Source: an uncultured bacterium (lineage in GTDB: Bacteria > Omnitrophota > Omnitrophia > Omnitrophales > Aquincolibacteriaceae). From it: a stretch of 64,000 nucleotides of DNA. Within the stretch, counting starts at the first letter, position 1. Every line of letters begins with the position of its first letter. This document shows, one piece after another, positions 41,847 to 59,639 of this stretch. The position numbers and the translations under genes are program-made. The DNA lies in assembly GCA_964562525.1 (NCBI GenBank), contig CAZLTL010000006.1, forward strand, positions 31,187 to 95,186, written 5' to 3'. Under the pieces are notes generated by a model. That model was given only the letters and a program-made list of their open reading frames with translations. It was not told the DNA's origin and did no database searches.

Positions 41847-44800
41847 ATGAGATCAGTTAAGCACAAAAGTAAACGGTGGGTAGCGCTTGGAGCGTGTATT
41901 TGCTTTGTTGCCACGCTCTTTCCCGACGCTCATGCCGCGCTGCCTTCGATTGACATGGCGGTTAAGGCCGAAACTCCTCGTGTTCTTAATATTGACATTC
42001 CCACTGAATTAGCCACAGTCGATGAGTGGTATCAGGCTCCTTCAAAATCCAAGCCGAAACTGATTGTGCATATTCAGGATGCTCACGCGAATTATGAAGC
42101 TCAAACCAAGATTCGTGATGTGATTAAGTATCTCAATACGAATTACGGTTTTAAAACAATTCTCGTTGAAGGCGCGGCAAGTGAGCTGGACCCGAATATT
42201 CTTAAGCTTTTTCCGGATCAAGACCGCAATTTAAAACTTGTCGACGAGCTTGCCAAAATCGGTGAGGTCACCGGCGCGGAAATGTTTTTGGTTGAAAACA
42301 GTGATGCCGCAAAAGGGATGGGGATTGAGAAGCCGGAGCTTTATCGCAAGAATTTTGACGCGCTTCAAAAAGTTTATTCCGAAGATGAGTTTGTCAGCGG
42401 ATTTTTCGAAGCTTATGAAAAAAAATTAGGACAAATTTCATCGCGAAGTTTTGGCCCGCGCATGATCCAAGCTTTGGCCGAATGGCGTAAATTTGAGAGC
42501 GGGCATCGTGATTTTTTACCATTTGTATCTAAGCTGGCGGAGCTTTCCAAGAAAGTTTTAGAGATGGATCTCGGTGTTCTTTACTCGCAGATTGAGTGGC
42601 CGCAATTAACACGTTTGTTGGTTCTGCAGCGTGTTGAAAAAGAATTAGAGCAGACTCATGACAGACGACCAACGACTGACGTCGAAGAAGGTGCTCAGCG
42701 TTCAGCCCTTAGTGTCAAACAACAAGCGGAACTGGAAAAACAGAACATCATCGATTTGATGAAAGTTGCTCAGTCGCCGGAAGGATTGATTCGAGGACTG
42801 GAGAACTTTAATGAGAAATCAGCTAATCTCAACCGCATTGGATCTTCCGAAGTTCGCCAGGCAAGTGCGCCGCGCGCTTTGATGGAGGCGTTGGTGGAAG
42901 AGGGTGCTAAGTTCGGTTTGAACATTCGCGATTATCCTGCTTTTGCCAAATACGCTGGCTATTTGATTCTTCGCGGCGAAATTGTGCCCGCAGAGTTATT
43001 TGAAGAAATTAAAAAGCTATTTGACCTCATTCTTGAATCTCTCGTGAAAGAAGCACCTTCTGCAGCAATGGAGTCAACGGATGATTTAGCCGCTCGCAAA
43101 CGTCTGCTTTTACTGCATCGTGATGAAATGCTGGCGCGCAAACTCCTTAAGCTTGAATTAACCCACGACGAGTGGCTGGCGGTGCTGAATAGACAAGATC
43201 GCTTTTATCCTGATGATTTGAATCGCCGTATGCTTGAACAACTGGGACAAAATACCCGAGTTAAAGAAACCGGCGGGGAAGAAGCCTCGCAAATGAAAAA
43301 ACTCAATGAAGCCTTTCGTGCCGCATTCACTTTCTATTCCGCTGCGGTGAATCGTGACACTTTCTTCTTTCAGCGTACGCAAGAAGTTTTAGCGCAAACC
43401 GACAAAGCCATTTTGATTACCGGAGGTTTTCACGCGGAGGGAATGAAGTATTTCTTTAGAAAATATGACATCAATTACGGAACTCTCACTCCACGCATTA
43501 CCCAAGAGTTCACCAACGAACAATACCGTAAGGTGATGATGACCGGCGTCGAGAAAAACAAAGCGGAGATTACGCAGCAGCTACAGGAAGGATCTTCAGC
43601 GGTGGAGGAGAGCGACACTCCAAAGTCTAAAAAAGCTGCGAAAGAAAACTATCTTGGTGCGGAAAGTCTTATTGATCCTCTAAGTGATGGTTTAGTTGGT
43701 GGGACAAGATCTGAAGTGCGGAGAAATATAGTTCAAATGTTAGCGGTTTCATTGGGCTTACCGAAAATTCAACAAGAAACCTCTTTAGCTGCGCCCGCGC
43801 AGGTGGCCGTTTCACGTCAGCCGAGATCGATCGCAGTACGATTCGAAAGTGTTTCTGCTCCTCAGGGCTTTTTATCTGTCCTAGAGGGGCAGCGAGCTTT
43901 AATTGGTGCGGGTATTGGGATTTTTGGTCTGGTTGCAGCGTATTTAGCCGCGTTATCCTCTCCAATTTTGTTGATTCTGGCGATTCCTTTTACTGCCAGT
44001 GGAATGATTTATGGATTCGATCAATATTTTAAAGCGCAATATTTGATTTCGAATGCCACCAAAGCCGGAAGTGTTGAATTAACCGATAGGCTTGCTACTT
44101 CTAGTCAAACAGAGGTTCCAGTTGTTGTGCAGCGAACGGAGGTTGCGCAAGTGGATGCGGAGCCGCTCACTTTCACTTCTGTTTTAACAGAGTTGGAAGT
44201 TGAAAGAGCGAAGTCTGAGCCAGATGCAGCGCGTTTGGCTGATTTGGTTGCCCAGTTGGTTGATTTAGCCGGTGACATTGAAGAGGCTAAACAAGCTCAG
44301 AATGTACTACGAGATTTAAGAGTTAAATACAAGAATCAGTTGAATCCGTCGCAATCAACCAACCTGATCATGAAAGTAGCACAACTCGCTGTGAAGTTGA
44401 ATCAATTCCAACAAGCTCAAAAATTATATGAGAGGGAGGAGATTGTTGTAACAGCGAAAGCTCCGCGCGAAGCTATTTTTGCAGCTCTTTCTCCGGAGGA
44501 CAGAGGGATTTTAAAGAGGATGGCGTTTGATGATTTAGAGAATCAAATTATTGACGCAAAAGACTTGTCCGCATCGCAAGCTGTGGCTATTTTGATTACT
44601 TACGGATTTATTTCCGATAAGGACCGCAATGCCGCCAAAAACTTAGCGATATTGGCTTCACTGGCTGTCACCAAGATTGCGCCTCAAAGGGTTTCGGAAT
44701 TGGCGGAAATGGTACGAGCCTTTTTCCCGGAAATGGTCTCATCGGACTTGGGTTATTTAGGCCGAATTATTGATGCGAATGGCATCGGAAACAAGTTAGA

Positions 44801-45272
44801 TACGATGCGGATGCAAGCTGTTTTAAATCCAAAAATGGAATTTGAAGTTGTTGTGTTTGGAGAGCGCGGCCCGATGGTTGAAGATAAGGCTCTTTCTAAT
44901 TTGCGTATTCGTTATGCCAAAGATTTTAATTCAGCTGCTAGTTTAGTTACCAGCAAAGGCGCTATGGAGAAATTTAAAATAGGCACCAAAGTATTGATGG
45001 TTGTGCCGGAAGGTAAAGATTTTAGAAAACTAGCTTCTCAGCTCAACTTGCAAATTGTTCAGGAAGAAAATAACCATGAGAAAAATTTAGAGGCGAGTGT
45101 TGCTATGGTTGTTGGAGCTCAGAATCTTGCCAGAAATGTTGAGGCATCCGTTGATGAGGACGGTATTGAAAAAGCAGGCAAGAACTGGCGCATTACAAAG
45201 CCCTCTTTATCAAGGCTAAAGGATATTTGGCAAAGGTTTCAAGCTGCTTTGCAGGTTATGCAATCAGCGTAA
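41847..45272 (+). CDS. Modular protein B (1,141 aa): head module, RSEVR, TM hairpin, tail module (cargo-less family member)
   Basis: Signal peptide (...FPDAHA/ALP). The head aligns closely with ORF C (HIQDAHANYEAQTKIRDVIKYLNTNYGFKTILVEGA; EWRKFESGHRDFLPFV; LLVLQRVEKEL; AILITGGFHAEGM). The tail ends ...ALQVMQSA*. Confidence 0.85.
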   Translation: MRSVKHKSKRWVALGACICFVATLFPDAHAALPSIDMAVKAETPRVLNIDIPTELATVDEWYQAPSKSKPKLIVHIQDAHANYEAQTKIRDVIKYLNTNYGFKTILVEGAASELDPNILKLFPDQDRNLKLVDELAKIGEVTGAEMFLVENSDAAKGMGIEKPELYRKNFDALQKVYSEDEFVSGFFEAYEKKLGQISSRSFGPRMIQALAEWRKFESGHRDFLPFVSKLAELSKKVLEMDLGVLYSQIEWPQLTRLLVLQRVEKELEQTHDRRPTTDVEEGAQRSALSVKQQAELEKQNIIDLMKVAQSPEGLIRGLENFNEKSANLNRIGSSEVRQASAPRALMEALVEEGAKFGLNIRDYPAFAKYAGYLILRGEIVPAELFEEIKKLFDLILESLVKEAPSAAMESTDDLAARKRLLLLHRDEMLARKLLKLELTHDEWLAVLNRQDRFYPDDLNRRMLEQLGQNTRVKETGGEEASQMKKLNEAFRAAFTFYSAAVNRDTFFFQRTQEVLAQTDKAILITGGFHAEGMKYFFRKYDINYGTLTPRITQEFTNEQYRKVMMTGVEKNKAEITQQLQEGSSAVEESDTPKSKKAAKENYLGAESLIDPLSDGLVGGTRSEVRRNIVQMLAVSLGLPKIQQETSLAAPAQVAVSRQPRSIAVRFESVSAPQGFLSVLEGQRALIGAGIGIFGLVAAYLAALSSPILLILAIPFTASGMIYGFDQYFKAQYLISNATKAGSVELTDRLATSSQTEVPVVVQRTEVAQVDAEPLTFTSVLTELEVERAKSEPDAARLADLVAQLVDLAGDIEEAKQAQNVLRDLRVKYKNQLNPSQSTNLIMKVAQLAVKLNQFQQAQKLYEREEIVVTAKAPREAIFAALSPEDRGILKRMAFDDLENQIIDAKDLSASQAVAILITYGFISDKDRNAAKNLAILASLAVTKIAPQRVSELAEMVRAFFPEMVSSDLGYLGRIIDANGIGNKLDTMRMQAVLNPKMEFEVVVFGERGPMVEDKALSNLRIRYAKDFNSAASLVTSKGAMEKFKIGTKVLMVVPEGKDFRKLASQLNLQIVQEENNHEKNLEASVAMVVGAQNLARNVEASVDEDGIEKAGKNWRITKPSLSRLKDIWQRFQAALQVMQSA
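42663..42718 (+). repeat. In-frame heptamer triplet AGACGAC CAACGAC TGACGTC plus an imperfect inverted arm
   Basis: Directly follows the codons for LLVLQRVEKEL(EQTH). Encodes DRRPTTDVEEGAQRSALSV. Confidence 0.65.
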
Positions 45273-45283
45273 TGTTGTTACCC

Positions 45284-45310
45284 CCATCCCGGATCCCGTA
45301 TCTGGGATGG
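45284..45310 (+). terminator. Stem-loop after ORF B (CCATCCCGGAT-CCCGT-ATCTGGGATGG)
   Basis: 11-bp stem with one G-U pair, 12 nt after the ORF B stop. No clear U-tract follows, so it may be an RNA-stability or processing hairpin rather than an intrinsic terminator. Confidence 0.4.
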
Positions 45311-45437
45311 AGGGAGCATTGGCGAGCAGAATATAACAGAGGGAAGCGTTTCTAATGGCTGTAGGAATGTTTGTTTGATTTACAAATTTTAATAATGTAT
45401 TGTTCTCAGAAAATTATAGAGGTTTATAAAGGTTTTA

Positions 45438-48400
45438 ATGCGTAACTCGTCCTGGCTTAAATTCACCGCTGGTGTATTTACGTTTCTTTTCGTTTTAAAC
45501 GACATTGGGCAAGCTGCGCCTGCGCTTGACTTTGCGGCGTCGTTGCGTTCAGAAATTCCGCGCGTATCCCATATTGAAATTCCACCTGAAATGGCAACTC
45601 TGGAAGATTGGTATGAATCGCCGAACGTAGGAGATACGCGGCTTATGCTTCACATTCAAGATGCTCACGCTCAGCCTGAAGCGCAAGCACGAATCCGTGA
45701 TCTCATCCACTATTTAAATAAACAGTATGGTTTTAAAACAGTTTTTGTTGAAGGTGCAGCGGAACAACTTGATGTGAAGTGGCTGCATCCATTTAAAAAT
45801 TCTGAACAAAACAAAAAGTGGATTGAAGAAAAAACATCTTCAGGCGAAATGTCGGGCGTTGATTTGGCATTGCTTGATGGCGTTGCCGGGCTCAAGGCTT
45901 TGCCAATTGAAACAATTGAAGGCTATCGGGATGGTTATCAAAAACTGCACGCGGTTTATACCGCTGAACCAGAGGTGAACGAGTTTATTAATTTTTTTGA
46001 CTCCAAGCTCGATTCAGCGGCATCCAAGATTTTGAATGAAAAAACAAGACGTATTCTTTCTGAGTGGAAAAAGTTTGAGTCTGGACATCGTGATTTTCTG
46101 CCTTTTGTTGAAAAATTAGCCGCGCTTGCGAAAGAGGATCTCAAGCTTGATTTAGACGCTCTCTACTCCCAAATCGAATGGCCACAACTGAGTCGGCTAC
46201 TTGTTCTTCAGCGAGTTGAGAAAGAACTCGCTGAAGCGGTGCCGACAGGGCAAAGGTCAAAAGTCAAAGGTCAAAGCCATAACTCAAAGCCGGTTAGCTG
46301 GAGAGAACAAGCGCTCGATGAAAAGGAAATAGTTCTCAATTTGCTAAAAGACGAACAAGCTAGCTCGGGATTGATCCATGGTCTCGAGCGGTTTGACGAG
46401 AAACATCTCAACTTAAACCGTATTACTGTCGGCGATGGAAGGCAATTTTCGAGCCCGCGCGCTTTAGTTGAGCAGTTAGTTGAAGAAACTCGCAAATTTG
46501 AGATTGATTTGCGAGATTATCTCGCTTTTTTGAAATACGCCGGATATTTGATTTTACGCGGCGAACTTCAGCCTTCTTTGCTTTTCAAGGAAATAGAGCG
46601 CCTTTTTGAGAAATTCCTCGAGAAGACTAACGACCCTTCGGCTGAGCTCAGGGCAAGCCAACGACTAACGACTAACGCCGGAGAAGATGTTCAGCGTGAA
46701 GCGCAGAGCGTTAAGCTGATCGAGATCTACCGCGATTCATTTCTTTTAAAAAAGTTGCTTAATCTTGAGCTTTCTCGCGAGGAGTGGCGAAAAGCGCTTG
46801 CGAAGCGGGAGGAGCTTGAACCGCAAAAGATTTTAGGGAGACTAAAGAATCTTGGAGCCGCGGTCCACGGTCCACGAGCCACGGCAAACGAAAAAAAGAT
46901 CACGAATCTTGAACCTCGAACTACGGAAAATCAGGACGTGGAGCGCACGTTTGAGAATGCCTTTGATTTTTATGATGCCGCGTTAGCGCGTGAAGATATT
47001 TTCTTTGAGAAAATTAGTTCGTCTTTGGCTCAAAACGATAAAGCGATTTTGATAACGGGCGGTTTTCATAGCGAAGGAATGAATGCGTTTTTTCGTGAAA
47101 AAGAAATTTCTTACGGAACCTTAACGCCGCGTATTACCAATCTTGCGCCCACTTCTTTGTACCGCAGCGCGATGATGCAAGCGACAAATTTGTCTAAAGT
47201 TTCGTCTCAGCCCACCCCAGCCTTGGCACAGCCGCTCGAGACTATTGCCGCCATGACTGCTTTGAGCGTGGTTGCAGTTCGTTCTGAAAGCCGACTTCAG
47301 ACTGAAGCTGCCGATTTTGTTCAATGGGTTGAGGATTTGAAATTAGTTCGGGATCCAAATAATGCCGCTGAAATCGAAACTGTTTTGCTTCGCCATCGAG
47401 ATCTTTTTAAGCATAGACCCGATGAATTTCCTGAAGAGTCGGTTAGCTTTCGCGGAAGAAATTTGCAGAAGATTCCTTCTCGTTTGATTCATCAGCTTGA
47501 TCTTACTTGGCTTAATGGCCGAAATTCTGATGCCAAACCGATTACAAGAAATGACTTGTTTCAGTTGGTATTTGACCGGCCTTTGGATGAAAACGAAGCT
47601 AAGGGGTTTGCCGGGTATGACAACATACAAAGTTTGCGTGATTTGTTCTATTTTTTGATTACTAAAGAGCATGGCAGAAGTTTGCAGCTTTTTGCAGAGC
47701 AGTATTTTGCTTTGGACTCCGGACAACGAGAGCTTTTTTTGGAGCAAGCATTTGATATTCATCAAATTACTCAGTATTTGATGGGGCAGATGGCTCGTAA
47801 CGATGATTATGAAGTTTCTGATGAGATTTTAACGGCTTACGCGAAAGCATGGCCAATTGTCATTCAATTTGGAGAGGCAGAGCTTCAATCGGGCGGGATA
47901 TTAAAGCGGTTAAAGACCGTTCCGGATTTGCCGGTTGACATCGATTTGCGCTCAAATCAGGATTCGGGGCAAGAAGTAATTTTAGAAGATTGGGAGCGAG
48001 CCCTTTTGCTGCTTGAGAACTATGTTGAGATCGGAGATGAGTCGATTGATACTCAAATCGGAGTGGTTTCATTGGGATTAAGGAGTTTGGCGGGGGATCA
48101 GGCAACGGAGGTTCGCTGGTCTCGTGCATCATCACTGGAACGGGCTGTGGCAGTTCGTCTGGAAGGAACTTTGCCTCTATCTCGCGAGGAAGCGAATCGA
48201 TATTTGCGATGGCTTGAAGTTGCGGATAGCGATTTGAATGGATTGGATCAAGCCAAACTTTTTGAGCCGAATCGTCTGGTCTTGATCGGCAAAATTGCCA
48301 GTTTGCGTGAACAGATAGTTGCTCGTCAGCTGCAGTCTGAATCTCGAGAGGATGAGCGTGATAGGGGAATGGCTCGATCAGAATTACGTACCGTTGAAAT

Positions 48401-51400
48401 TGACGGAGTCACTGCGAACTGGGAAATTGTGGAAAACCTGCTGCTGGGAGACCCCGGAAAATTTGATGCGGCATTCGAGTTTGAAAAAGACGAAGAGGTT
48501 TACTTAAAAATAAAACCCGCCAACTTCAAACAGCAGCAAGATTTGACTGAAGCGGGTTTTGAGTCTGAAAATCCGAATTGGGTTAAGAGTTTAGTGGATG
48601 ATGCGCAGCTGCTTACTTATGTGGTTGGAGCTCAGCCCAAGATCCGTGCTTATCTTGTCCAAGATAAATCAAGAAATACGACCGGCTTAAATCAAATCGA
48701 GTTTGATGCGGGCGGAGTTGTTCGGCCGAAGGGTGATAAGGGTATTTCTGCAAGCCGGTTGAATGAAGCTGGCCAACTAATTACTTTTATACCGCAGGTT
48801 TTTGTTTTAACGAAAGCCGGAGTTTTGCCCGGCAGATTTAAAACTTTATCAGAAAAAGATGAAATAGAACGTGTTGCGGCTGAAAGATTGGCTGCTGAGC
48901 AAGAAAATCTGCGGGCAGTTCAGCGTTCAACTGCCGCATTAAAAGAAATTCAAGACCGCATGAGTGCGCTCGCGGCATCGATGGAAAGTGAGTCTGCGTG
49001 GTCTTTTGTTCCTCAAAGCATTCCTAATATTGATCGTGAGGAAATTGCGGATAGCGATGACCTTAAGTTGATTCGAGCGCGCAGTCAGATGATTTCTGAA
49101 GATTTGAATTCTTTACGAATAGCTTGGCAGCAGGCGACGGATACACAAAAGAAATGGGACAGGCTGCTCCGAGATTGGGCTTCTGCTTACGATAAAATCA
49201 ACAAAGAAAGCAGTAAGCTTGCCGGCTTAAATTTTCAATCGATTGCGGTGAATCTGCAAAGCCGCCGTGAGGCATTGAATAAAATAGAAACGTATCTTGA
49301 AAGTTTGGTCAGAATAATGGGCTCGTTTCAAGCCAAAAAAGCTGAATTTGAAAGCAAATTACAGGCTGAGAAAGAAAGAAAAAGAGCGGAAATAGAGCGA
49401 GTTCGGTTCGAATCTTCTCAGAGGCGTGGTGCTTTTTGGGATAGGGTTAACCGTTGGGGGCCGTTTGGTTTGATCGCTTTTGCTGCAATGGCTCTGATTT
49501 GGTTTTTGGGGATACGCGAAAAAACTGTCGCACCTGAAGTTCGTTTGTCGCAACCGGAAATGATGGATTATTCTTTACAGGGCTTGCCCCAAGGGATTTT
49601 GGACGCAATGCAGCGAAATCGGCAGAATTTGAAATGGACCCCGCAAGAGGTTCTTTTACAGCTGCAGACTCTTATATCAAAGCATGTCACAGATGAGCTG
49701 GATTTGGGGCCAATGACAATTGCTGGTTTTCCAAAAGATTTCGATCAGCTTGAAGTTGTAAACCCGCCCAAGGATGCTTACTCGATTGTTATTCCGGGAG
49801 TGCAATTTTACCAAGCCGAGTTCATTCCGAAGCTGAATAACAAACCGATTAAGCAATTTCAGCAAATGGTTGTTTCAGTAGAAACAGTTCGCGGTGCGAA
49901 AGTATTTTATGCACAAGATACGATTGTGCAGGTGGGCGAATGGCTGCTTTCTTTAGCGGGCGATTCGATTTCTTCAGCGGAGAGTTTGCGGATGGGTGCC
50001 TACATTGCCCAGGAGTTTGCCGGCACCACCTTTGGTTTAGAGCAAATTGATCATTGGCTTGCGAAAAACGGTGCCTCGCAGGCTCCGAGTCCATTGCTGC
50101 GAGGGCAAGTCGATTTGCCGGTAACGTATTTTATCGCTAAAGAACTTGAGGGATTGCTGTCATCAGACTCTCCGTTTGTTGAGCCGTTTCGGGAGCTGGA
50201 GAAGCAATTAAACGGAGGGCAGGGGAATGTTTCCGCTTCCGGTAAGATTTTGACAGCACTCATAATCAGCGTTTACGCAGACTCTAAGCTCTATCTTGAA
50301 AAAATTAGCGTGGATGAGCAAAAGAAAATATTTGATGCATTATCAAGAGAGCTTGTCCCGCTGGTAAATCAGAATGGCGTTGGCGTTGAGGTTGCGGCGC
50401 TTGAGCGCCTGCGCGGTTCGATCACTTTTCGAATGGCGTCGCAAACTCAAATGCTTTCGGCAGGTTTAAGAAATGGTTCAATTACCTCCGAACAAGCAGT
50501 CTTGCTGTGGAATCAGCTGATGGGGTTGGAGGAGGAAAACATTTTAGCGATTGTTGGATATTTAAATCAGAAAAATATTCCTCAGGCCGCCAAGCTTTCT
50601 GGGTTTGTCAAAAGTTACTTTGAGAATGCCCGTGCTCTTAGCCAAGACCCTGATGGGGTAAGGTATATTCGCGAGCAAGTTGAATTAAGAATGAGAATGG
50701 GAACAGAGCTACTGCACAAATCTGAGCAGACAAAACCGGCCGGTCGTTCTGAAATGCGGGAGTTTGGTGAGCTGGTTGAACGTGTTATTTCGCACACTCA
50801 TTCGGATGGTGCGAACAAAGATCAACGGAAAAACCTTGTTGATTTTTTTAGGATGATGTCGCGAGGATATCAGCAAGAGTTTCTTGCGGAGCTTCAGCAT
50901 CAAGCGCAAGGACAGCCTGCAAGGAAAAAAATAAAAATTGTTTTAAGTCATGAAAATCCTGACCCCGACGCGATCATTAGCGTGATCGGCGAAGCATACG
51001 CTCAGTGGGCGGCATTAAGCGATCAAGAAAAAGATAAAACCTTGGTGATGCCTTTGCTTTACGGCGAGGTTCCGGCAAACACCTTGTATTTGATTCAAAT
51101 GCTGGAACGTCTGCTTAAGAATGATACGGTTCCGGATGAACAGGAATATGGCGGAATGCTCATGCTTCGTGGTCCACCTGCAATTTCTGGAAAGACGGCT
51201 CCCGGAACGATTCTAGATTTATTACTTATAATTAGCACTAACGCTTCTCAGCAGGACTTATTTCAGCCGTCCGGAGCGATAGAGCTAACCTTGATCGATT
51301 TTAACCCTTCTATTGCTCCAAAAGATTTGGATCCTCTTATGCCTGCGATTGTCCGAACCCTGGATCATCACATCCAAAATGTTGAAAAAGCACCGAATAT

Positions 51401-54400
51401 GACTGCGGAGGAAACTTTTATTTTTAAGAATGGCTCAGCCTCAACATTAGCCGCATTGCGCGCCGCAGGCTTAGGGACATACTTAAGTCGCTCAGATTTA
51501 TTTACGCAGCAAAATGTTTCGGCCAATTCTTTTGCAGAGGAACGCGAAAAAATGGAATCAGCTATGTCGGCAATTCCACTGCCGTTACGCCTTTTGTTCT
51601 TGCTGGCAATCATGATTGATACCGATAACTTTAAAAACGACAGTACGGTTAAACCTGTTGATATTTTGGTTTATGAGAGTTTACAGAAGTCTTTATCCGC
51701 CGGGCTGGTTTCCTTTTCTGAATTGATTCCTTACCGTGATCTTATTAAAGATTTTTTGTCGAATTATCACCTCAAAAAAGATTTTTTGCAGGATGATTCC
51801 GCTCGTTCAGTCGCAGAGGTCGATGCTCACAATCGCAAGGCCCTCGTGGACTTAATTTTAAAAGGGGATAAGAAGAAATTTCTCACAGCGGATGGGCAGC
51901 CTTTTCTTTTTTCGAGCATTGATCTTTCTTCTGTTTCTGACCTTCCGAGGATTCGTACTGTGCTTGAACTTGCCCTTCAGGATGTGTTTAACCAAGTTAT
52001 TCGTAATTATGGAACAGGTCAAGATGGCAGCTCAGCTGGGGCGGAGCAATATGCTTTTGTCGTAGTTCGTTTTGCTTTTTGGGGCGATCAAAAGGTTGAA
52101 ATTCACACCATGCGAAAAAACTTAACCGCAAATCAACCGGGGATAGATGGGCAGGCTTTGGCAAACTTTATGCAGGCCGCGATGACGACGAATGGCCAAC
52201 CACCCCTTTCAGGCACTTCGCACAAACATGGTTTTGTTTTGCTCCCGGCGACATGGATGCAGCGTAAGCAACTTTCCGGTTTATTGGAAAATTATAAAAA
52301 CCCTGAAAAAGAGACTCGCCGTTCTGAAAGCCGCGCCGGTTATATTTCGAGAAGAACTGCGATTTTTGGGGGATTGATGGCATTGTCCTCTTATTTTGTT
52401 CCTTCGTCATTAGTGGCAGAGCAAAATGCGCAAAAATGGCGTGATGGCGAAAGGCTCATGCACGGTTTAGGCGCTTGGGGTGTTGTCGCGGGCGAGTACG
52501 GCGACACCGATGCTAGTCACATGATTTATCGCGGCCAATCTTTATCTGAAATTAAAATTAGTTTTGATACAAGACGAGGACATGCTCCGCAGGCCGTAAG
52601 CATCAATGCGAATGGCGCCATTCGCGGGCATGCGGTGCAACCAGGAAGAAACGACGGTCTTGCCTCTACTTTTTATCTTCTTCGGTATCACGATGAAAAG
52701 GGCGTTTTACATGACAGCGCTTTGATTCAGAAATTGTTAGGAGTTAAAACACAAGAAGGAAAGCTTGTGTTGGATGTTGAGTTAGGCGACCGCGAAAAGG
52801 GTGCCTCCCGTTGGAAGACTATGAATGCCCAAATTGTTATTTATCCTCCCGATCGTGTTGATGGGACGTTGCGGATGGATATCCACCGCTCTGCTCCTCA
52901 GGGTTTGAAAGTGTCTCAAGAAAAATTAGGTTTAATGGAAGGTCTCATGACGGAATTTATCGCTACGAACCATAGCGGTGCGGATTCTGACTTTGATGGC
53001 AGAGAGTATTCAGATGCTCAGGCAGCTCAATTTTATGATGACAAAGGAAAACTTGTTCTCGATCGAGATTTGAAAAAGGCGCGTGATGAGGTTCCTTCTG
53101 ATTCGGGTTTCAGACTTATAACCGCGGAAGGGGATGATTGGATGCCGAAGAAAATAGGGGGTATAGCGGCTTTTGCGGTGGTAAGTGAAAAACATTCACC
53201 GGCGCACCAATTTAAGCGCATGCCTATTCCTCCGACGATGTTGGTTGTGCCGCATCAAGGATTTTATTTGGCATCAGGTGCGGTGACTTATCGGAAAGGC
53301 GAAACCAATTTTAATTCGGATAATGTGAATGTTACGGTTCAACCCGAAGATGTTGAGGCGGCTTTAAGTAAACCATCATCGGTTTCGGTTTTCTTTATGC
53401 CCGGCGCGACACCTGAATCAGAGAAGCGTATTCCGGCTATGATTCAGTCTGTGCGTCGCTCCGAAGTTCGAGGGGATCAGGACAGGCAATTGGGTGGAGC
53501 AATTTCATTTCCGATTATTATTGGTTTGCTAGGTTCGTTCACCGCCGGCGTTTATGTTTCGATGCTTACACCCGCAATCGCCGGACTCGCTGCGGCGGCC
53601 CTATTCTTTTTACCGATTTATGCTGGCGCACGCTTTTTTTGGCGGACGGTTGTGGAGGGAAAGAATTTTCCATTTCAAAATCTTCAAGACGCCTTTTTGT
53701 GGGAATCGAAACTATTGGCACGCGTTTTATCAAAGAATTGGTCTGAGATTAAACTTTGGATTTTTATGCGAAAAACGCTTTCCGCCGAAGAGATGAGGAA
53801 TCAATTTGATGAGCTCAGCTCTTGGGGGTTAATCCAATCGGACGTGGATGCTTCCTTTTCGGATTCTAAAGATTCTCTCAAGATTCGATTTAAGCTTTTA
53901 AGCTTAGATTCGGAAGAATCGGCCGCAACATCGTCTCATAGCTTGAGTATATCGCGCATTTTTGCCGATGGTGAGCGCGTTTATTTTGAATATTACGATG
54001 ATTCACAATCTCCGGCACGCTACCGCTATCGTATTTTTGATCAAAGCAATTTAAAGAGTGCTGCCGAAGATTTAAGCGCAAACGACTATCGCGCCCAATA
54101 TCGTTCAATTGCCGCACTACATCGATCTGTTCCAACAAGTTTTCTGGATGTCATGAATGATCATAATGAGAGCCCGAGACGCTGGAGCCTTTTGTTTTAT
54201 CCGCTTGTGATTGCGTTTGCAGTATTTGCAGGCTATCAGTATGTGGGAGCTGATGTGATGGACTGGATTTCGCTCTGGCATGATGTGCGATCATCTTATG
54301 TGAAGTTGTTATCGCCGCTTTCCGTTGAAGCGGTGATGGGTATTGGGGTTTTATCTTTGGCAGGTATTGTTCTAGCTTTATTCATTGTTGATCGGGTTTT

Positions 54401-57400
54401 TCTTTTTCTTCAAACATTGATATTTATGATTGCCTCGCTTCCGGCAACTTTGGTCTATGCACTTATTTATTATTCGCGCGTTCCCGATTTAATTTATTTT
54501 GCGTTTTCAAAAAGTGGCAAGCTCAAGCCGACACTTCTGAATAAGCTGGTTAATTTATCGGTTGGTTTGGATGAAATGGAACCCGAGGAACCTGAGTTCG
54601 GAGAAGAGGAAAAATCTGCCCTGATTCGTGAGCAAATAACTCAAACACTTTCAAGTTACGAGATTGGCGTTGATGATCAAATTACTTATTTTGGGAATGA
54701 TCGCCGCTTGGCAAATGAGTTGGCAGCATTTCAGCCCGATACCTATGTTGTTATTTCTCCTGAAAGTGAAAATCTCTCCCAAATTGAAATTGATTTAACG
54801 GCCCCATTTGATGGCGAGGGCATTTGGGAAAGAGCGACCGATAAAACAATTGTTTTTTTTGATGATCACGCCCAAGAAACATTTACCTTTGTGAATGAAT
54901 TGGATTTTAGCCGCGACCAGGTTGTGATTATCGACCCGGACGTTGAAGTGACTTGGGATGAACTGAATGCCTTTTTAACTCAGACGACAGGGACTGGTCT
55001 GATCGTTGGTCATCGCAGTTCCTTTCCGGAAAACTGGGAAAATTTGCTGGGGGATGACGAGCGTTTTGAGGTGCTTGAGGCTGATGATATTGTCACTATT
55101 CACATGAACGATATCAATCGTTCTGAAACACGTTTACAAAAAGCATCATTGCAAATCGTTGACGCGCTTCAAGGCTACGCAAATTGGCTTTCAACATCAG
55201 AGTATGATTTAAGCGCTTCCGCGGTGCGCAAGCAACCTCAACGACTGCGTGAAATAGGTGCTTTTATGGTTTTAGGCAATCCGGATGCTAAAACATTTAT
55301 TGAGTTTGCTAAAGGCTGGTATGAGATTGCTCAAAAAGTTCAGCGCCAAATTCCGATTGTCATAGCCGGAGGCATTGGCAGGGGAACAATAGGTTTGATT
55401 GATACGACGCTTGAGCACTATAGGCAATTAGGACGTTTGAATCCCGCAGAGGAAAAACTTTTGCTCAAAATGCGTTCTCAGGTTGAAAGTTATCTTGAAG
55501 CGAAGGCGTCTGCCGCGATTGCCCGATCAAAACAGCCTGAACATCCCGGTGTGACGGAAAAAAATGTCATCATGTTTATTTTTGCCAAAGAAGGTGTTGG
55601 GCGTTTTGCGTCTCAGCCAGGCAAAGTCGAAGCTTTTGACCCCAGACAGAATTACACCGGGGCTCCGGTGTATTTTGAAAATGGAAACTCGACAAACACT
55701 CCTGAGAACTTTGAGTTTTCCAAGCCTGTTTTTGAATCATTGGTTCAAGAGGGTTTGATTCTGCCTAATCAGAAAACTGTCATTGTGACCGAACCCGCGC
55801 TTTTGGCGAGAATTAAACCTACTTTGCTTTATGTTGCAAAGGAAAAGGGCTGGCAAGGAGATATGAATTGGCCGCGCGCGCGGGTTTATCCGCTTGATTT
55901 AAAAAAGCTGTTTAAGCCGAATAGCATGACTGCGGAAAACGCACAGCGGTTGCTGGATAAAATTCTTTATTGGGCCGGGCCCTCTAAGCGCATGATCGAA
56001 ATGTTTCCCGACTCCGCAAAGAATGTGAGTGAGCTTAAAAAATATGCAGACCAGTATTGGGGGGCTATTTCTGATGGCGGGCTTGACTTTAAAGTGCCCG
56101 TAGAAAAGCTGCGTGAGCGCGTGCCTGAGTACTCAGCTGCGGAAGGCTTGATTCAATCCACATTGATGGCAACCGATGAGTTTCTAGATGCTTTGAGTGA
56201 AGCCAGTTACAAAATTGAATTCGATACGTTGAACCGCACTTTTACGGTCACCGCCCGATCTGAGTCGCGAATGCTTGGAAAAGATAGTTTAATCACCACC
56301 GCAAAAATGACTTTTGAGAATGCTTTGGCCATGGTGAAGCGACGCGGTTCGGATGCGATTACAGATGAGACAGTGAGATTAGCCGAAAACTATCATCGTA
56401 CCCCAGAAGCATGGATCATTGCGAATGAAGAGGAACGCCGCTATGCCGAGCGGCTCTCTTCGATGACTTTGGCGGAAATGAAGGAACATGCTGAAGACAA
56501 AACAAATCCGATTTACGGAGAATTAAACAAATACCGAGGCTTCGATTCAATTGTCAATTATCTCAGTAACGTTCAGGCCCGTCGCGGCGGACAATCGCTT
56601 TCCATTGCGCAACGCTGGATCGATATCCTTACCCAAAGTAACCCGGAAGTTATGGCACAATTTTTTGAGGGTGACCCCGATAATAAGGCGTTGCAAAACT
56701 TGCGTTTTTACCGAGCGTTTTTGCGTGAAATGATTTACCGTTGGGACACCAATGAGAAACCGCGTTCCGCAGAATTGTTTAATGCTCGTTCCGAAATGCG
56801 TTTAGCGGACGAAGATCGCGCTGCCCTTGAGCAATCACTTTCGGAGCTGATGAAATATTTGTCGCAAGGACGCGTTTACCGCATGACACCGGGAATGAAA
56901 GCCTTTGAAATGGACGAGTCATCACGGCCAATGGCTTGGGATGAAATCGCTAATTTGCCTGAGGACTATTTGCCGGATGCAGTTTTATATTTTGGCAGCC
57001 GTGATGATCAGGTTCCGCAGCTTTCGATACCGGTTTTACAAAAAATGATCGCGCGTAAACCTGATTTGAAGATTGTGACCACCGGCAAATGGAGTGATAC
57101 GCATACGGAACTGGCCGGAAACTTCAAAGATGAGTCCGGCGCGCGGATTTCCGAGGCTGAGCATTTTGCCCGCATTCTCGAAAGAGAGTTGGCAATTCAA
57201 GTCGAGCGCGAATCCAATTCAACCAATACCGGACAAAATATTTCGATGGGGCGGGAAAAGTTGACCCAAGCCGGAGTTGATACAAAAAATATTAAACTAT
57301 TGGTTGTCGCTCAGCCGGCGCATCAGCGCCGTGTCGGCGCTTCGGTGTTGAAGCAATGGCTGAAGCCCGAAGAGCTTGCGGGAGGAGACTATCAATTGCA

Positions 57401-59639
57401 TGTGATTTCGGCAACACCGCGAGAGTTAGAGAAAAAAGATATCGAGATGCTCACGGATGATGAGCTTTTGGCGTTAACTGAGATTGCTTTGGGGGAAATC
57501 AAGCGAATTTATAATTATCCCGCTTCCGGATTTACGGTGCCTGTGGATGTTCCTGCGGAAGTGAATGGGGCTGAAACCAATTTAAATCTGCTGGTGGCAA
57601 AAGTCGGAAGACTGAGTCAGCGTGCTGAGCTGCCCAAGCCGACGCTTGATTTTGAATCTTTAAAGACCGAGGTTAATCAAGGCACTTATAACGCGCTTTC
57701 CGATATTCGTGACGCAATTCAAACGACGAATCTGCCTCTCGAAATGATTCTTTTTGGGTCTTATGCGGATGGGTATCAAATATCCGGCAGCGATTTAGAT
57801 TTAATGTTTAATGCCTCCATCCGCGGGTATGAGTCACAGGCAGAATCTGTCAGTCGTCGAATCATAGATCATTTGATGCAGCTTGGTTATCGGTTTGATT
57901 TGAAGCATCATGCTGCGGGCGGTGTGCTGCCATCCGTTATGCATACGACGCCCGCTGATTTTGTTGAGGCGCGCGGTCCCGGAAAATTTTTCCGTAAGGA
58001 AGAAAATAAAACCGCGTGGATTGTTTCTGCTTCTTCCGTCCGCCGCATTAATTTATTGAACGGCGATGTTCAGATTTATCAGTTTGCCCGCTCCGAAATG
58101 CGGGATGTGCCCAATTGGAAGGCGCTCGGTGCGGCGGAACAAGTTAAAACGCTTTTGTATCCCGGCAGCGGAGTTGATTTTTCCGCGGGATTGAGTTTAG
58201 CGCTGCAGCTGCCGAACCTGACTGATATTTATTATGTTGATCCCGCGTATTCAAGCCAGCAATTGCCTGAACGAAAGGCTGAAAAAGGTTATCACTATTA
58301 TCTTTATGATATTTTGGCGAATGTGGATTCGCGATATTTCTTTTCTGCCCGTGAACCGTTCTCAATGGAGGAAATTATAGCGTTTCAAAAGCAATTTGCT
58401 CAAACCGGTAAGGTCGCTATACCTATTATCTTGCCTGATTCGGGCGGACGAACGATCAATATTCATCTTGTCGCAAGTCTGTTTGAGACGGGATTTCAGT
58501 CCAAAATAGGTATTCCGGAGCAGGTTGATTTTATTCTTGTGAAAAACCCGGGTACGAATCGTCGATTGAGCCAAGAGCCTTCTTATTGGAATCAAGTTGT
58601 TGAATCTGTGCAGCCGAATGGAATTGTGGCGGTGACTTTTGCCGAGATTCCGGGTCAGGGAGTTGATTTTAAGCCGGTTCGTGATGCTCTTGGCGAGCCT
58701 CTTTTTAAATCAAGTGAATTTTCGGGACAAGGTTTGGTTTGGGCGGGACAGTGGGTTGTTTATCAGAAAAAAGACACCCGGACTGAGATTCGACGGTCAG
58801 AATTAACATTGGGAACTCGGATACAGGTACCAACTCCTGAGTTATCCCCAGCTTTTGAGAAGGTGTATGAAGCGTTGATGCTGAAGTTGAATGAACTGAC
58901 TACTGTCGAAGAAACGGCGGCGGTGATTGCTTATGGCTTTACAAACTCATCCCTCGGCCGCGAAAAGCAAGTTGCTATGTTAACTGCCCTCGTAGGACTT
59001 ATCGGCGTGAGCCGTTTCGAGATAATACAGAAGGTGATGCGTGAAAAGCATGCCGATGCTTGGGGCCGCCTGCAATCCATGGTTCGCTCGCCATCTAAAA
59101 ACCGTGTCATCTATCGAACGATTGATGCGGCGCAATTATCCGATGCGAAACTTCGTGAAGCATTGTTGAACGGAATGAAAGCCGTGTGGCTTGTGAACCC
59201 CAATCAAAAATTTCATTTACTTGCGGATGCCGATGTTTCGCAAGACGTTTTGAATCGGTTGGATTCAGATGTTAAGTCTTGGAAGTCTCAACTCGAAATC
59301 AAAGCGGATAATTTTGGTATTCAAGCTCGCGCTGATTTTGCTCTAAAGGCGAATGCGGATAGTTTTGTTTTTAGTACGACACGAGAAGAATTGCTCAATG
59401 ACCGCATGGCTTTGCCGGTGCATGAGTCTTTTTCGCAAAATGAACCTGATTATCTTGAAGCCGCGATTTTAGCTTTGGCAAATCTAGCTCAACAAGGTTC
59501 GCTGGTTGATCGCTTACTGCCCGGATTTGAGCAAGAGGGGGTAGGGCGTTATAAGTTAACCAATAATAGTCTTGTTCTTTATCTTGAAACAATTTTGGCT
59601 GATATCGAAGCGCTTCTGGCAACAGCCCAATCCGCTTAG
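45438..59639 (+). CDS. Giant modular protein C (4,733 aa): signal peptide, head module, long multi-enzyme cargo, tail module
   Basis: Uninterrupted 14.2-kb ORF with in-frame domain motifs throughout. The head is paralogous to ORFs A and B. The tail ends ...LLATAQSA*. Confidence 0.85.
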   Translation: MRNSSWLKFTAGVFTFLFVLNDIGQAAPALDFAASLRSEIPRVSHIEIPPEMATLEDWYESPNVGDTRLMLHIQDAHAQPEAQARIRDLIHYLNKQYGFKTVFVEGAAEQLDVKWLHPFKNSEQNKKWIEEKTSSGEMSGVDLALLDGVAGLKALPIETIEGYRDGYQKLHAVYTAEPEVNEFINFFDSKLDSAASKILNEKTRRILSEWKKFESGHRDFLPFVEKLAALAKEDLKLDLDALYSQIEWPQLSRLLVLQRVEKELAEAVPTGQRSKVKGQSHNSKPVSWREQALDEKEIVLNLLKDEQASSGLIHGLERFDEKHLNLNRITVGDGRQFSSPRALVEQLVEETRKFEIDLRDYLAFLKYAGYLILRGELQPSLLFKEIERLFEKFLEKTNDPSAELRASQRLTTNAGEDVQREAQSVKLIEIYRDSFLLKKLLNLELSREEWRKALAKREELEPQKILGRLKNLGAAVHGPRATANEKKITNLEPRTTENQDVERTFENAFDFYDAALAREDIFFEKISSSLAQNDKAILITGGFHSEGMNAFFREKEISYGTLTPRITNLAPTSLYRSAMMQATNLSKVSSQPTPALAQPLETIAAMTALSVVAVRSESRLQTEAADFVQWVEDLKLVRDPNNAAEIETVLLRHRDLFKHRPDEFPEESVSFRGRNLQKIPSRLIHQLDLTWLNGRNSDAKPITRNDLFQLVFDRPLDENEAKGFAGYDNIQSLRDLFYFLITKEHGRSLQLFAEQYFALDSGQRELFLEQAFDIHQITQYLMGQMARNDDYEVSDEILTAYAKAWPIVIQFGEAELQSGGILKRLKTVPDLPVDIDLRSNQDSGQEVILEDWERALLLLENYVEIGDESIDTQIGVVSLGLRSLAGDQATEVRWSRASSLERAVAVRLEGTLPLSREEANRYLRWLEVADSDLNGLDQAKLFEPNRLVLIGKIASLREQIVARQLQSESREDERDRGMARSELRTVEIDGVTANWEIVENLLLGDPGKFDAAFEFEKDEEVYLKIKPANFKQQQDLTEAGFESENPNWVKSLVDDAQLLTYVVGAQPKIRAYLVQDKSRNTTGLNQIEFDAGGVVRPKGDKGISASRLNEAGQLITFIPQVFVLTKAGVLPGRFKTLSEKDEIERVAAERLAAEQENLRAVQRSTAALKEIQDRMSALAASMESESAWSFVPQSIPNIDREEIADSDDLKLIRARSQMISEDLNSLRIAWQQATDTQKKWDRLLRDWASAYDKINKESSKLAGLNFQSIAVNLQSRREALNKIETYLESLVRIMGSFQAKKAEFESKLQAEKERKRAEIERVRFESSQRRGAFWDRVNRWGPFGLIAFAAMALIWFLGIREKTVAPEVRLSQPEMMDYSLQGLPQGILDAMQRNRQNLKWTPQEVLLQLQTLISKHVTDELDLGPMTIAGFPKDFDQLEVVNPPKDAYSIVIPGVQFYQAEFIPKLNNKPIKQFQQMVVSVETVRGAKVFYAQDTIVQVGEWLLSLAGDSISSAESLRMGAYIAQEFAGTTFGLEQIDHWLAKNGASQAPSPLLRGQVDLPVTYFIAKELEGLLSSDSPFVEPFRELEKQLNGGQGNVSASGKILTALIISVYADSKLYLEKISVDEQKKIFDALSRELVPLVNQNGVGVEVAALERLRGSITFRMASQTQMLSAGLRNGSITSEQAVLLWNQLMGLEEENILAIVGYLNQKNIPQAAKLSGFVKSYFENARALSQDPDGVRYIREQVELRMRMGTELLHKSEQTKPAGRSEMREFGELVERVISHTHSDGANKDQRKNLVDFFRMMSRGYQQEFLAELQHQAQGQPARKKIKIVLSHENPDPDAIISVIGEAYAQWAALSDQEKDKTLVMPLLYGEVPANTLYLIQMLERLLKNDTVPDEQEYGGMLMLRGPPAISGKTAPGTILDLLLIISTNASQQDLFQPSGAIELTLIDFNPSIAPKDLDPLMPAIVRTLDHHIQNVEKAPNMTAEETFIFKNGSASTLAALRAAGLGTYLSRSDLFTQQNVSANSFAEEREKMESAMSAIPLPLRLLFLLAIMIDTDNFKNDSTVKPVDILVYESLQKSLSAGLVSFSELIPYRDLIKDFLSNYHLKKDFLQDDSARSVAEVDAHNRKALVDLILKGDKKKFLTADGQPFLFSSIDLSSVSDLPRIRTVLELALQDVFNQVIRNYGTGQDGSSAGAEQYAFVVVRFAFWGDQKVEIHTMRKNLTANQPGIDGQALANFMQAAMTTNGQPPLSGTSHKHGFVLLPATWMQRKQLSGLLENYKNPEKETRRSESRAGYISRRTAIFGGLMALSSYFVPSSLVAEQNAQKWRDGERLMHGLGAWGVVAGEYGDTDASHMIYRGQSLSEIKISFDTRRGHAPQAVSINANGAIRGHAVQPGRNDGLASTFYLLRYHDEKGVLHDSALIQKLLGVKTQEGKLVLDVELGDREKGASRWKTMNAQIVIYPPDRVDGTLRMDIHRSAPQGLKVSQEKLGLMEGLMTEFIATNHSGADSDFDGREYSDAQAAQFYDDKGKLVLDRDLKKARDEVPSDSGFRLITAEGDDWMPKKIGGIAAFAVVSEKHSPAHQFKRMPIPPTMLVVPHQGFYLASGAVTYRKGETNFNSDNVNVTVQPEDVEAALSKPSSVSVFFMPGATPESEKRIPAMIQSVRRSEVRGDQDRQLGGAISFPIIIGLLGSFTAGVYVSMLTPAIAGLAAAALFFLPIYAGARFFWRTVVEGKNFPFQNLQDAFLWESKLLARVLSKNWSEIKLWIFMRKTLSAEEMRNQFDELSSWGLIQSDVDASFSDSKDSLKIRFKLLSLDSEESAATSSHSLSISRIFADGERVYFEYYDDSQSPARYRYRIFDQSNLKSAAEDLSANDYRAQYRSIAALHRSVPTSFLDVMNDHNESPRRWSLLFYPLVIAFAVFAGYQYVGADVMDWISLWHDVRSSYVKLLSPLSVEAVMGIGVLSLAGIVLALFIVDRVFLFLQTLIFMIASLPATLVYALIYYSRVPDLIYFAFSKSGKLKPTLLNKLVNLSVGLDEMEPEEPEFGEEEKSALIREQITQTLSSYEIGVDDQITYFGNDRRLANELAAFQPDTYVVISPESENLSQIEIDLTAPFDGEGIWERATDKTIVFFDDHAQETFTFVNELDFSRDQVVIIDPDVEVTWDELNAFLTQTTGTGLIVGHRSSFPENWENLLGDDERFEVLEADDIVTIHMNDINRSETRLQKASLQIVDALQGYANWLSTSEYDLSASAVRKQPQRLREIGAFMVLGNPDAKTFIEFAKGWYEIAQKVQRQIPIVIAGGIGRGTIGLIDTTLEHYRQLGRLNPAEEKLLLKMRSQVESYLEAKASAAIARSKQPEHPGVTEKNVIMFIFAKEGVGRFASQPGKVEAFDPRQNYTGAPVYFENGNSTNTPENFEFSKPVFESLVQEGLILPNQKTVIVTEPALLARIKPTLLYVAKEKGWQGDMNWPRARVYPLDLKKLFKPNSMTAENAQRLLDKILYWAGPSKRMIEMFPDSAKNVSELKKYADQYWGAISDGGLDFKVPVEKLRERVPEYSAAEGLIQSTLMATDEFLDALSEASYKIEFDTLNRTFTVTARSESRMLGKDSLITTAKMTFENALAMVKRRGSDAITDETVRLAENYHRTPEAWIIANEEERRYAERLSSMTLAEMKEHAEDKTNPIYGELNKYRGFDSIVNYLSNVQARRGGQSLSIAQRWIDILTQSNPEVMAQFFEGDPDNKALQNLRFYRAFLREMIYRWDTNEKPRSAELFNARSEMRLADEDRAALEQSLSELMKYLSQGRVYRMTPGMKAFEMDESSRPMAWDEIANLPEDYLPDAVLYFGSRDDQVPQLSIPVLQKMIARKPDLKIVTTGKWSDTHTELAGNFKDESGARISEAEHFARILERELAIQVERESNSTNTGQNISMGREKLTQAGVDTKNIKLLVVAQPAHQRRVGASVLKQWLKPEELAGGDYQLHVISATPRELEKKDIEMLTDDELLALTEIALGEIKRIYNYPASGFTVPVDVPAEVNGAETNLNLLVAKVGRLSQRAELPKPTLDFESLKTEVNQGTYNALSDIRDAIQTTNLPLEMILFGSYADGYQISGSDLDLMFNASIRGYESQAESVSRRIIDHLMQLGYRFDLKHHAAGGVLPSVMHTTPADFVEARGPGKFFRKEENKTAWIVSASSVRRINLLNGDVQIYQFARSEMRDVPNWKALGAAEQVKTLLYPGSGVDFSAGLSLALQLPNLTDIYYVDPAYSSQQLPERKAEKGYHYYLYDILANVDSRYFFSAREPFSMEEIIAFQKQFAQTGKVAIPIILPDSGGRTINIHLVASLFETGFQSKIGIPEQVDFILVKNPGTNRRLSQEPSYWNQVVESVQPNGIVAVTFAEIPGQGVDFKPVRDALGEPLFKSSEFSGQGLVWAGQWVVYQKKDTRTEIRRSELTLGTRIQVPTPELSPAFEKVYEALMLKLNELTTVEETAAVIAYGFTNSSLGREKQVAMLTALVGLIGVSRFEIIQKVMREKHADAWGRLQSMVRSPSKNRVIYRTIDAAQLSDAKLREALLNGMKAVWLVNPNQKFHLLADADVSQDVLNRLDSDVKSWKSQLEIKADNFGIQARADFALKANADSFVFSTTREELLNDRMALPVHESFSQNEPDYLEAAILALANLAQQGSLVDRLLPGFEQEGVGRYKLTNNSLVLYLETILADIEALLATAQSA
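46255..46284 (+). repeat. In-frame heptamer triplet GGTCAAA AGTCAAA GGTCAAA followed by GCCATAACT
   Basis: Directly follows LLVLQRVEKEL(AEAVPTGQ). TCAAAGCCATAACT (46271-46284) is identical to 10891-10904 in the mraY-murD spacer element. Confidence 0.75.
46658..46678 (+). repeat. In-frame heptamer triplet CCAACGA CTAACGA CTAACGC
   Basis: Encodes QRLTTNA. It lies in a segment absent from the ORF B head at the equivalent position. Confidence 0.7.
46862..46882 (+). repeat. In-frame heptamer triplet GGTCCAC GGTCCAC GAGCCAC
   Basis: Encodes VHGPRAT. It lies in a segment absent from the ORF B head at the equivalent position. Confidence 0.7.
50925..51665 (+). other. ORF C cargo: DHH-family [15 protein letters not shown] domain
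   Basis: Motif I SHENPDPDAI, motif II LIDFNPS, motif III LDHH (DHH at 51363-51371), motif IV MIDTDNF. Confidence 0.75.
55260..55820 (+). other. ORF C cargo: DUF218/YdcF-like module 1
   Basis: FMVLGNPD...IVIAGGIGRG...ENGNSTNTPENF...VIVTEPALLARI follows the DUF218 pattern (VLG...sGG...E..S.nT.eN...lVT..H..R). The final His is not conserved. Confidence 0.45.
56979..57355 (+). other. ORF C cargo: DUF218/YdcF-like module 2
   Basis: VLYFGSRDD...IVTTGKW...SEAEHFARIL...ERESNSTNTGQNI...LLVVAQPAHQRRV closely follows the DUF218 signature. Confidence 0.6.
57738..57818 (+). other. ORF C cargo: Pol-beta-superfamily nucleotidyltransferase core motif
   Basis: LEMILFGSYADGYQISGSDLDLMFNAS matches hG[GS]x9-13 D-h-[DE]-h. 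Confidence 0.65.
58794..59636 (+). other. ORF C tail module (shared with A and B)
   Basis: It starts at the degenerate motif RRSELT. AAVIAYGFTNSS...MLTALVGL parallels B AVAILITYGFISD...LAILASLAV. The C-terminal approximately 40 aa follow the pattern EGhx...SL...QSA*. Confidence 0.6.

Follow-up and report, generated by a model that had tools for sequence, protein, structure and literature searches.

The question raised by this locus was what the smallest of three related genes represented. In the 64,000-nucleotide stretch of Omnitrophota DNA that we analyzed (the window), three open reading frames (ORFs), named A, B and C, encoded members of one protein family, and ORF B (41847-45272, forward strand) was the shortest with 1141 amino acids (aa). 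An initial annotation had described B as the empty scaffold of the family, composed only of a head, a single RSEVR motif, a two-helix hydrophobic segment and a tail, and had proposed that it defined what was constant in the family and might serve its cargo-bearing paralogs as a functional core, an anchor or a processing unit. We found that B was the zero-cargo member of an Omnitrophota-specific modular protein family. For the overall reading, in which the family forms a bracket of head, cargo and tail, and B is a cargo-free paralog rather than a dedicated helper for C, the evidence seemed to us to tip somewhat in favor.

Omnitrophota are uncultured, ultra-small and probably predatory or parasitic bacteria that are known for very large genes. 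The head was present in all 29 database matches and in all 44 genome loci, and the named records among them were without exception Omnitrophota metagenome-assembled genomes. Every member started with a signal peptide, equivalent to that of B, and a head of ~570 aa. Nearly every complete member ended with an amphipathic last helix followed by [S/A]A-COOH (40 complete members, like B), and the interval between head and tail held from 0 to more than 10 domain-sized modules. A family of this kind, combining a head of the TIKI fold, junctions of the RSExR type (RSEVR being the form in B), polymorphic cargo and restriction to one phylum, appeared to be undescribed. Within the window, an iterated head profile covered A, B and C as the only head-bearing ORFs, and the head hidden Markov model (HMM) matched B with E = 7e-218, C with E = 3e-186 and A with E = 3e-131. 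Residues 7-572 of B aligned to residues 2-587 of C with 42.6% identity (BLASTP, E = 3e-134), and two shorter and weaker stretches aligned to A. The head that had been traced in B to about 43545 was thus present, and the single RSEVR, the two-helix hydrophobic segment (aa 684-724 by hydropathy) and the 165-nt gap with a hairpin between B and C were also confirmed; all coordinates of the initial annotation proved correct.

The description of B as an empty scaffold was supported within its own clade by orthologs with zero, one or many modules. Three of them (P0003, P0005 and P0006; 1142-1202 aa) had the same parts as B and no cargo. Two others, P0002 (1572 aa) and P0004 (1672 aa), shared ~75% identity with B in the head and possessed the same unit of RSExR, hairpin and tail. 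In both, unrelated sequence of 450-550 aa was inserted after the head and ahead of the pre-hairpin RSExR, at a place that corresponded to the linker interval of B (43563..43892). The longest, P0030 (4044 aa), carried many modules ahead of a B-type terminal unit. Both P0003 and P0004 were located at the syntenic position of B (MMPL, small ORF, gcvT, gcvH, gcvP1, gcvP2, lplA, uvrD, B ortholog). Since these positional orthologs had either no cargo or an insert of 450-550 aa, B could be considered as the "empty" state within the clade. The C ortholog that started 160 nt past P0004 was 4944 aa long and resembled C over its first ~710 aa including the head (51%), in one RSEVR-plus-hairpin block (52%) and in a weaker stretch of ~300 aa (25%). 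The rest was dissimilar, indicating that cargo turned over between positional orthologs. The cargo of P0004 itself (L046 10001-15019) contained a zincin-like HExxH motif (HEIAH) and had no Pfam match.

A small protein of this kind could also be a damaged large one. However, the central region of B had no significant similarity to the cargo of A or C, and simple truncation was therefore not indicated. According to another explanation, B is a decaying remnant of a cargo deletion without a function of its own. The RSExR that preceded the hairpin and the B-type tail in most members of the clade was intact in P0002, P0004 and P0005 and degenerate in B (PRSIAVR) and P0003, and the tail evolved fast, both of which would agree with decay. 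On the other hand, at least four diverged genomes contained intact cargo-free orthologs of 1141-1202 aa, and minimal members of ~1000 aa were common in other clades. Moreover, the comparison of B with P0003 (window 41847-45269 versus L045 10001-13429) gave a ratio of nonsynonymous to synonymous substitution rates (dN/dS) of ~0.06 for the head and of ~0.3 for the hairpin and the tail (~0.27 in its helical part), with the highest value in the linker (~0.48); in the alpha/beta part of the tail, dN was 0.83 and dS was saturated. The intact orthologs and the low ratio of the head led us to reject B as a pseudogene, and we regarded the remnant explanation as very improbable. Judging from these rates, a fast tail combined with a slow head would fit a tail that recognizes a variable partner.

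The proposal that B defined what was constant in the family found no support in the other clades. Their common members of ~1000 aa had no transmembrane (TM) hairpin, which was kept in B-clade members only, and many of them had no RSExR; in distant clades, even cargo was present without RSExR. An exhaustive profile search with the linker, hairpin and tail of B found the B-type tail in 7 representatives only, among 1.84 billion, which ruled out a widespread tail family at the sequence level. Thus, near-constancy across the family was limited to the head and the C-terminal portion of the tail, and RSExR and the hairpin were clade-specific.

A tail common to A, B and C had also been claimed, and this stood for B and C. 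BLASTP at up to E = 10 revealed no similarity between the B tail and either paralog. When 23 tails of the B clade were combined in a profile, it matched the last ~160 aa of C in C-terminal register (hhalign Prob 95.9, P = 6.4e-9; P >= 0.086 for 18 control windows from A and C). The same profile gave P = 0.17 for the tail of A, where what was left of the claim was a weak C-terminal signature. Namely, the last 60 residues of A were the best of 695 A windows against a 45-aa C-terminal family profile, with 9.6 bits over the last ~25 residues and 5.9 bits for the best unrelated A window. All three proteins finished with the small-residue C-terminus of the family (...ALQVMQSA in B and ...ATAQSA in C). 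In BLASTP and jackhmmer searches of local sets, the profile started from the B tail grew within its own clade only and the tails of C and A were orphans; database searches returned one fragment for the C tail and none for the A tail. This yield was too small to construct profiles of the C and A tails. Additionally, an HMM of the B hairpin matched neither A nor C nor the C ortholog, so that the internal RSEVR-plus-hairpin block of C was not detectably homologous to that of B.

The next point was whether B worked for its giant neighbor. The version put forward in the initial annotation was that B is an anchor, translocator or processing subunit dedicated to C and co-expressed with it. The tandem arrangement of a B-like gene followed by a giant was conserved in at least three genomes (the window, L046/L047 and L002), and tandem family members were common in other loci; a functional link between the two genes may exist. 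However, the heads of A and C were complete and had the same invariant His/Glu/His as B, so neither needed the head of B, and C possessed its own tail. Furthermore, positional orthologs of B carried cargo themselves, and A had no B-like neighbor. The intergenic region pointed in the same direction. Just 3' of the B stop codon was a strong GC-rich hairpin that was conserved in L046 and L047; it was not called in a terminator scan because it had no U-tract. Further downstream was an AT-rich promoter-like block, near-invariant in L046 and L047 and largely kept in the more distant L002 (intergenic regions compared: L046 15017-15181, L047 12381-12545 and L002 3529-3645). The conserved hairpin and the promoter-like block suggested that B and C were separate transcription units. 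Thus, the role of functional core, anchor or processing unit for the cargo-bearing paralogs was not upheld, and we considered a dedicated subunit improbable. The AT-rich block is probably a promoter or operator of C, as judged from its sequence; in the orthologous loci, much of the coding sequence was less well conserved than this block. An Rfam scan of the whole window found no family. Neighboring genes in the window included gcv, lplA and uvrD and those for a TPR protein, an acyltransferase and an M48 protein. The features are listed in Table 1.

Table 1. Parts of ORF B, elements of the B-C intergenic region and the two paralogs, in window coordinates
Feature	Position	Strand	Remarks
Signal peptide, Sec-type (B aa 1-30)	41847..41936	+	Basic n-region, WVALGACICFVATLF, AHA/A; read from sequence
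Head domain (B aa 31-572)	41937..43562	+	TIKI/TraB/ChaN/Ere/RRSP-like alpha/beta core with helical insert of ~350 aa
Head invariant residues	His80 42084-42086; Glu108 42168-42170; His529 43431-43433	+	
Linker, low-complexity	43563..43892	+	Contains the one RSEVR of B, 43707-43721 (aa 621-625)
Two-helix hydrophobic hairpin (aa 684-724)	43896..44018	+	Predicted membrane anchor; Kyte-Doolittle scan
Tail, helical-repeat part (aa 776-959)	44172..44723	+	
Tail, Rossmann-like alpha/beta part (aa 969-1141)	44751..45269	+	With terminal amphipathic helix ending QSA-COOH; the part with detectable similarity to C
GC-rich strong hairpin	45281..45315	+	No U-tract; just 3' of B stop; conserved in L046 and L047
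AT-rich promoter-like block	45374..45409	+	TTGATT-17 nt-TATTGT, upstream of C; near-invariant in L046 and L047, largely kept in L002
Paralog C (4733 aa)	45438..59639	+	Head, nine RSExR, several TM segments, own tail
Paralog A (3532 aa)	12435..23033	+	Divergent head, four RSEAR; MBL, cNMP-binding and DnaJ cargo; inside dcw cluster

The core of the head had the TIKI/TraB/ChaN/Ere/RRSP fold, a parallel beta-sheet alpha/beta core between helices. The matches (scores in brackets) were a TraB family protein (8bqs_DQ; 10.4), the Ere-like Bcr-type proteins 2rad (9.5) and 2qgm (8.5), HopBA1 (9.1), ChaN (8.8), the MARTX Ras/Rap1 endopeptidase RRSP (8.7), EreC (8.4) and PMT (6.6). This set was largely the TIKI superfamily as described previously, where the active site is formed by two His and two Glu (2His/2Glu) located at strand ends (PMC6254334). 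The His85/Glu113 pair of Bcr135 and the His3902/Glu3930 pair of RRSP are 28 residues apart (PMC6254334), and the spacing between His80 (HIQDAH) and Glu108 (VEGA) in B was also 28, with His529 (GGFH) after a later strand. All three residues were invariant in 24 sequences and followed beta-strands in the model. At the sequence level, the head profile had no relevant match among PDB sequences and none from the TIKI/TraB superfamily, and B had no significant HMM match to Pfam TraB/PrgY/GumN (PF01963) or another curated family. The head was therefore placed in a hydrolase superfamily with both peptidases and esterases among its members, as a new branch that is remote in sequence. In comparison to the known branches (TIKI, TraB-PrgY, GumN, ChaN, Ere with Bcr135/136, RRSP, HopBA1 and PMT-C2), it differed by the helical insert of ~350 aa that splits the core, by Asp, Asn or Thr in place of Glu at position His-2, and by being fused to a signal peptide on its N-terminal side and to a train of modules on its C-terminal side.

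The rest of B was less easily classified. The whole protein had no Pfam match beyond a sub-threshold one to MtxA_C (E = 0.028) and no NCBIfam match at E <= 0.1, and a Foldseek search of its tail against the PDB found no significant match. The alpha/beta part of the tail was not a type-I periplasmic binding protein or LacI fold, which has two Rossmann-like lobes, a hinge and a ligand cleft. The hairpin consisted of two helices of ~20 aa with SSP between them. B would be exported through Sec and its signal peptide removed, after which the central hairpin would anchor the protein in the inner membrane. Since the hairpin crosses the membrane twice, the head and the tail should be on the same side, and both the predicted hydrolase head and the tail would face the periplasm. 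In the minimal members without TM segments, both domains would likewise be on the exported side. It may be that head and tail together supply the basic activity of the family and that cargo modules are passengers in the larger paralogs.

In B's part of the family, RSExR was a real module delimiter. A, B and C together contained 14 in-frame copies (four, one and nine, respectively), and a six-frame scan of the 64-kb window found one more, out of frame within the coordinates of A. In 144.5 kaa of family proteins, 195 copies were observed versus 3.2 expected from composition, and scrambled or conservative variants were rare. The flanks were unconserved except for Ala at -1, and x was mostly Val, Met or Ala. 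Longer proteins had more copies, in a linear relationship (r = 0.87) with a slope of ~2.2 copies per 1000 aa and zero copies at ~800 aa. The median spacing was ~300 aa, and hydrophobic content dropped around the motif. All Pfam domains in A, L029, L005 and L016 lay between motifs, among them DnaJ, cNMP-binding, MBL, HEAT, response-regulator receiver, Rce1-like, methyltransferase and FHA domains; none spanned an RSExR and several began or finished 6-30 aa from one. The loci also contained ~110 kaa of other ORFs with a length of 300 aa or more; those with RSExR among them were fragments of adjacent family members, with the exception of one single-motif ORF. A substitute delimiter was searched for in the clades without RSExR and none was found.

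Codon usage at the motif was biased beyond that of the genes as a whole (203 sites in loci L001-L044; window sites are, e.g., 43707-43721 and 47280-47294). The first Arg was CGC in 58% versus 23%, Ser was TCC in 53% versus 20% with AGY nearly absent, and the x codons mostly ended in G, giving the consensus CGC TCC GAA NNG CGG. A signal acting at the DNA or RNA level only was rejected because Arg used all six codons, so selection was primarily on the peptide. A 2A-like translational skip was rejected as well because there was no conserved flank.

A strict five-residue motif with unconserved, linker-like surroundings, placed between domain-sized modules and found in one family, has the appearance of a processing site in a polyprotein. 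We tentatively proposed that the modules are released by proteolytic processing at RSExR, a proposal that we held possible although short of an even chance. The leading candidate for the protease would be the TIKI-like head of the family itself, and B would be cut once, between its head and its membrane-anchored tail. If the cargo is exported, the nearest analogy would be MARTX-like effector delivery, which, speculatively, would fit a phylum whose members have been proposed to live as predators or epibionts. The fuller version, namely that these are Sec-dependent, MARTX-like secreted polyproteins unique to Omnitrophota, in which the head or a family-recognizing partner cuts at RSExR and effector modules are destined for a host or prey cell, was rated as doubtful.

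Several points weighed against this line of thought. Cleavage at RSExR was deduced from sequence, the topology of B came from hydropathy alone, and the tail model of B was of modest quality (predicted local distance difference test, pLDDT, 60) with generic fold matches. The first Glu of the 2His/2Glu motif was replaced, by Asp78 in B and by Asp, Asn or Thr in the other family members. The superfamily also holds esterases and a heme binder, and its fold does not imply protease activity. Distant head clades (P0024-P0029) carried cargo without any RSExR, and many members of ~1000 aa had no RSExR; all of these proteins kept His/Glu/His. The catalytic residues of the head being equally conserved without RSExR, the head must have another or an additional substrate. 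Finally, many cargo domains were of a cytoplasmic type (DnaJ, cNMP-binding, response regulator, FHA, methyltransferase) and had no obvious use in the periplasm of the producer.

The conservation of His/Glu/His even in RSExR-free clades and minimal members would be readily explained if RSExR is the target of another protease, supplied by the producer, the host or the prey, and the head has another job, for example as an esterase or peptidase acting on the envelope or on its own termini. R-x-x-x-R with a small residue at -1 is similar to the sites of basic-residue-specific proteases, A was located in the dcw cell-wall cluster, and a weak membrane-zincin-like segment was found in A (aa 956-1099). 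However, RSExR was essentially confined to the family in the DNA examined, and a general protease should have other RSExR substrates; nor was any candidate protease gene consistently adjacent. We considered this explanation unlikely. The segment in question, a multi-TM part of A (aa 954-1099, 15294-15731), had weak matches to membrane-embedded zincins (DUF3267, E = 0.018; YydH/LiaK epipeptide maturation protease, E = 1.2e-5), and by its sequence it might represent another processing protease that A carries as cargo.

It was also conceivable that RSExR is left uncut and serves for linkage, as a hinge or for docking, and that the giants work intact as membrane-tethered multi-domain scaffolds of which B is the smallest. 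RSExR did sit in linker-like sequence, in B it started a short conserved helix (RSEVRRNIVQMLAVSLGL), and a 2026 preprint on Omnitrophota long proteins describes signal-peptide-plus-TM anchored multi-enzyme proteins with no mention of cleavage. Nevertheless, a passive linker would rarely have four strictly invariant residues between unconserved flanks, a docking partner has to be postulated, and tethered cargo of a cytoplasmic type would be hard to use on the exported side. We gave this explanation the same low rating as cleavage by a different protease.

Among known systems, MARTX toxins were similar in their very large size and their export, in the conserved N- and C-terminal regions around a variable set of mutually unrelated effector domains of a cytoplasmic type, in the differences of the domain set between strains, and in the short processing sites between domains. 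Moreover, their effector RRSP has the same fold as the family head. In contrast to MARTX toxins, a Pfam scan of A, B and C found neither RTX/glycine-rich repeats nor the C80 cysteine protease domain (CPD). The family had an N-terminal Sec signal rather than a C-terminal signal for a type I secretion system, TM segments and no rtxBDE among its neighbors, and RSExR, a candidate processing site, was unrelated to the Leu sites of the CPD. The polymorphic toxins (Rhs and the contact-dependent inhibition system CDI/CdiA) shared with the family a constant scaffold, swappable modules, rapid cargo turnover in close relatives and tandem paralogs. Unlike their single C-terminal toxin tip, the family cargo was internal and multiple, with a conserved tail at the C-terminus; it was regulatory or enzymatic with no recognizable toxins, and no immunity-like small ORF followed B or C, the interval between B and C being free of small ORFs and C being followed by a convergent TPR gene. 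Gingipain/HagA polyproteins of Porphyromonas are also exported, and in the gingipains an N-terminal protease domain cuts after basic residues between downstream modules. They differ by an unrelated, caspase-like protease fold and a C-terminal domain of the type IX secretion system, and are not known for such cargo polymorphism.

The giant proteins of Omnitrophota (Archaeovorins and multi-enzyme long proteins) belonged to the same phylum, combined a signal peptide and TM segments with strings of unrelated Pfam domains, and were suspected to be cleaved into smaller products. By their published description they are larger (>10-30 kaa) and have SecA-like, C39 or S8 domains, and no family head, [S/A]A tail or RSExR has been reported for them. 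The preprints and the paper on these long proteins discuss possible cleavage and mention neither the head nor the tail nor RSExR, and a literature text search for the motif gave irrelevant matches only. In the key paper, the cleavage points are stated as unknown. Thus, the family bears on the question of whether very large Omnitrophota proteins function whole or cut up, since it offers a strongly non-random junction motif together with a conserved hydrolase-fold head as a possible processing enzyme. If the secreted-polyprotein reading is true, at least some of these proteins would have their missing cleavage point in RSExR, and B, cargo-free and with a single site, would be a minimal substrate and enzyme in one polypeptide. 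B is also a natural construct of 1141 aa, with one motif and no cargo, that is small enough for expression, mutation and modeling. Additionally, with a constant head-tail bracket and fast cargo exchange between positional orthologs, the family evolves in a way that has elsewhere been seen mainly in toxin systems. Even if no cleavage takes place, the family would still add to the TIKI superfamily a new branch that is restricted to one phylum and unusual in its modular architecture.

Several minor observations concerned the two giants. ORF A lay in the dcw cell-wall and division cluster, flanked by murD (10984-12237) and ftsW (23123-24229). The gene order over 9772-30645 was mraY, murD, A, ftsW, murG, murC, murB, ddl, ftsQ and ftsA; there was no ftsZ after ftsA, and MlaC and an MMPL transporter came next. 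Two junctions of A, at aa 2438-2452 (19746-19790) and aa 3249-3263 (22179-22223), had an extended near-identical linker, which suggested a duplicated junction. In C, the stretch past one junction (aa 2294-2321, 52317-52400) reads RRSESRAGYISRRTAIFGGLMALSSYFV and, from its SRR motif followed by a hydrophobic stretch, looks like an internal signal of the twin-arginine type.

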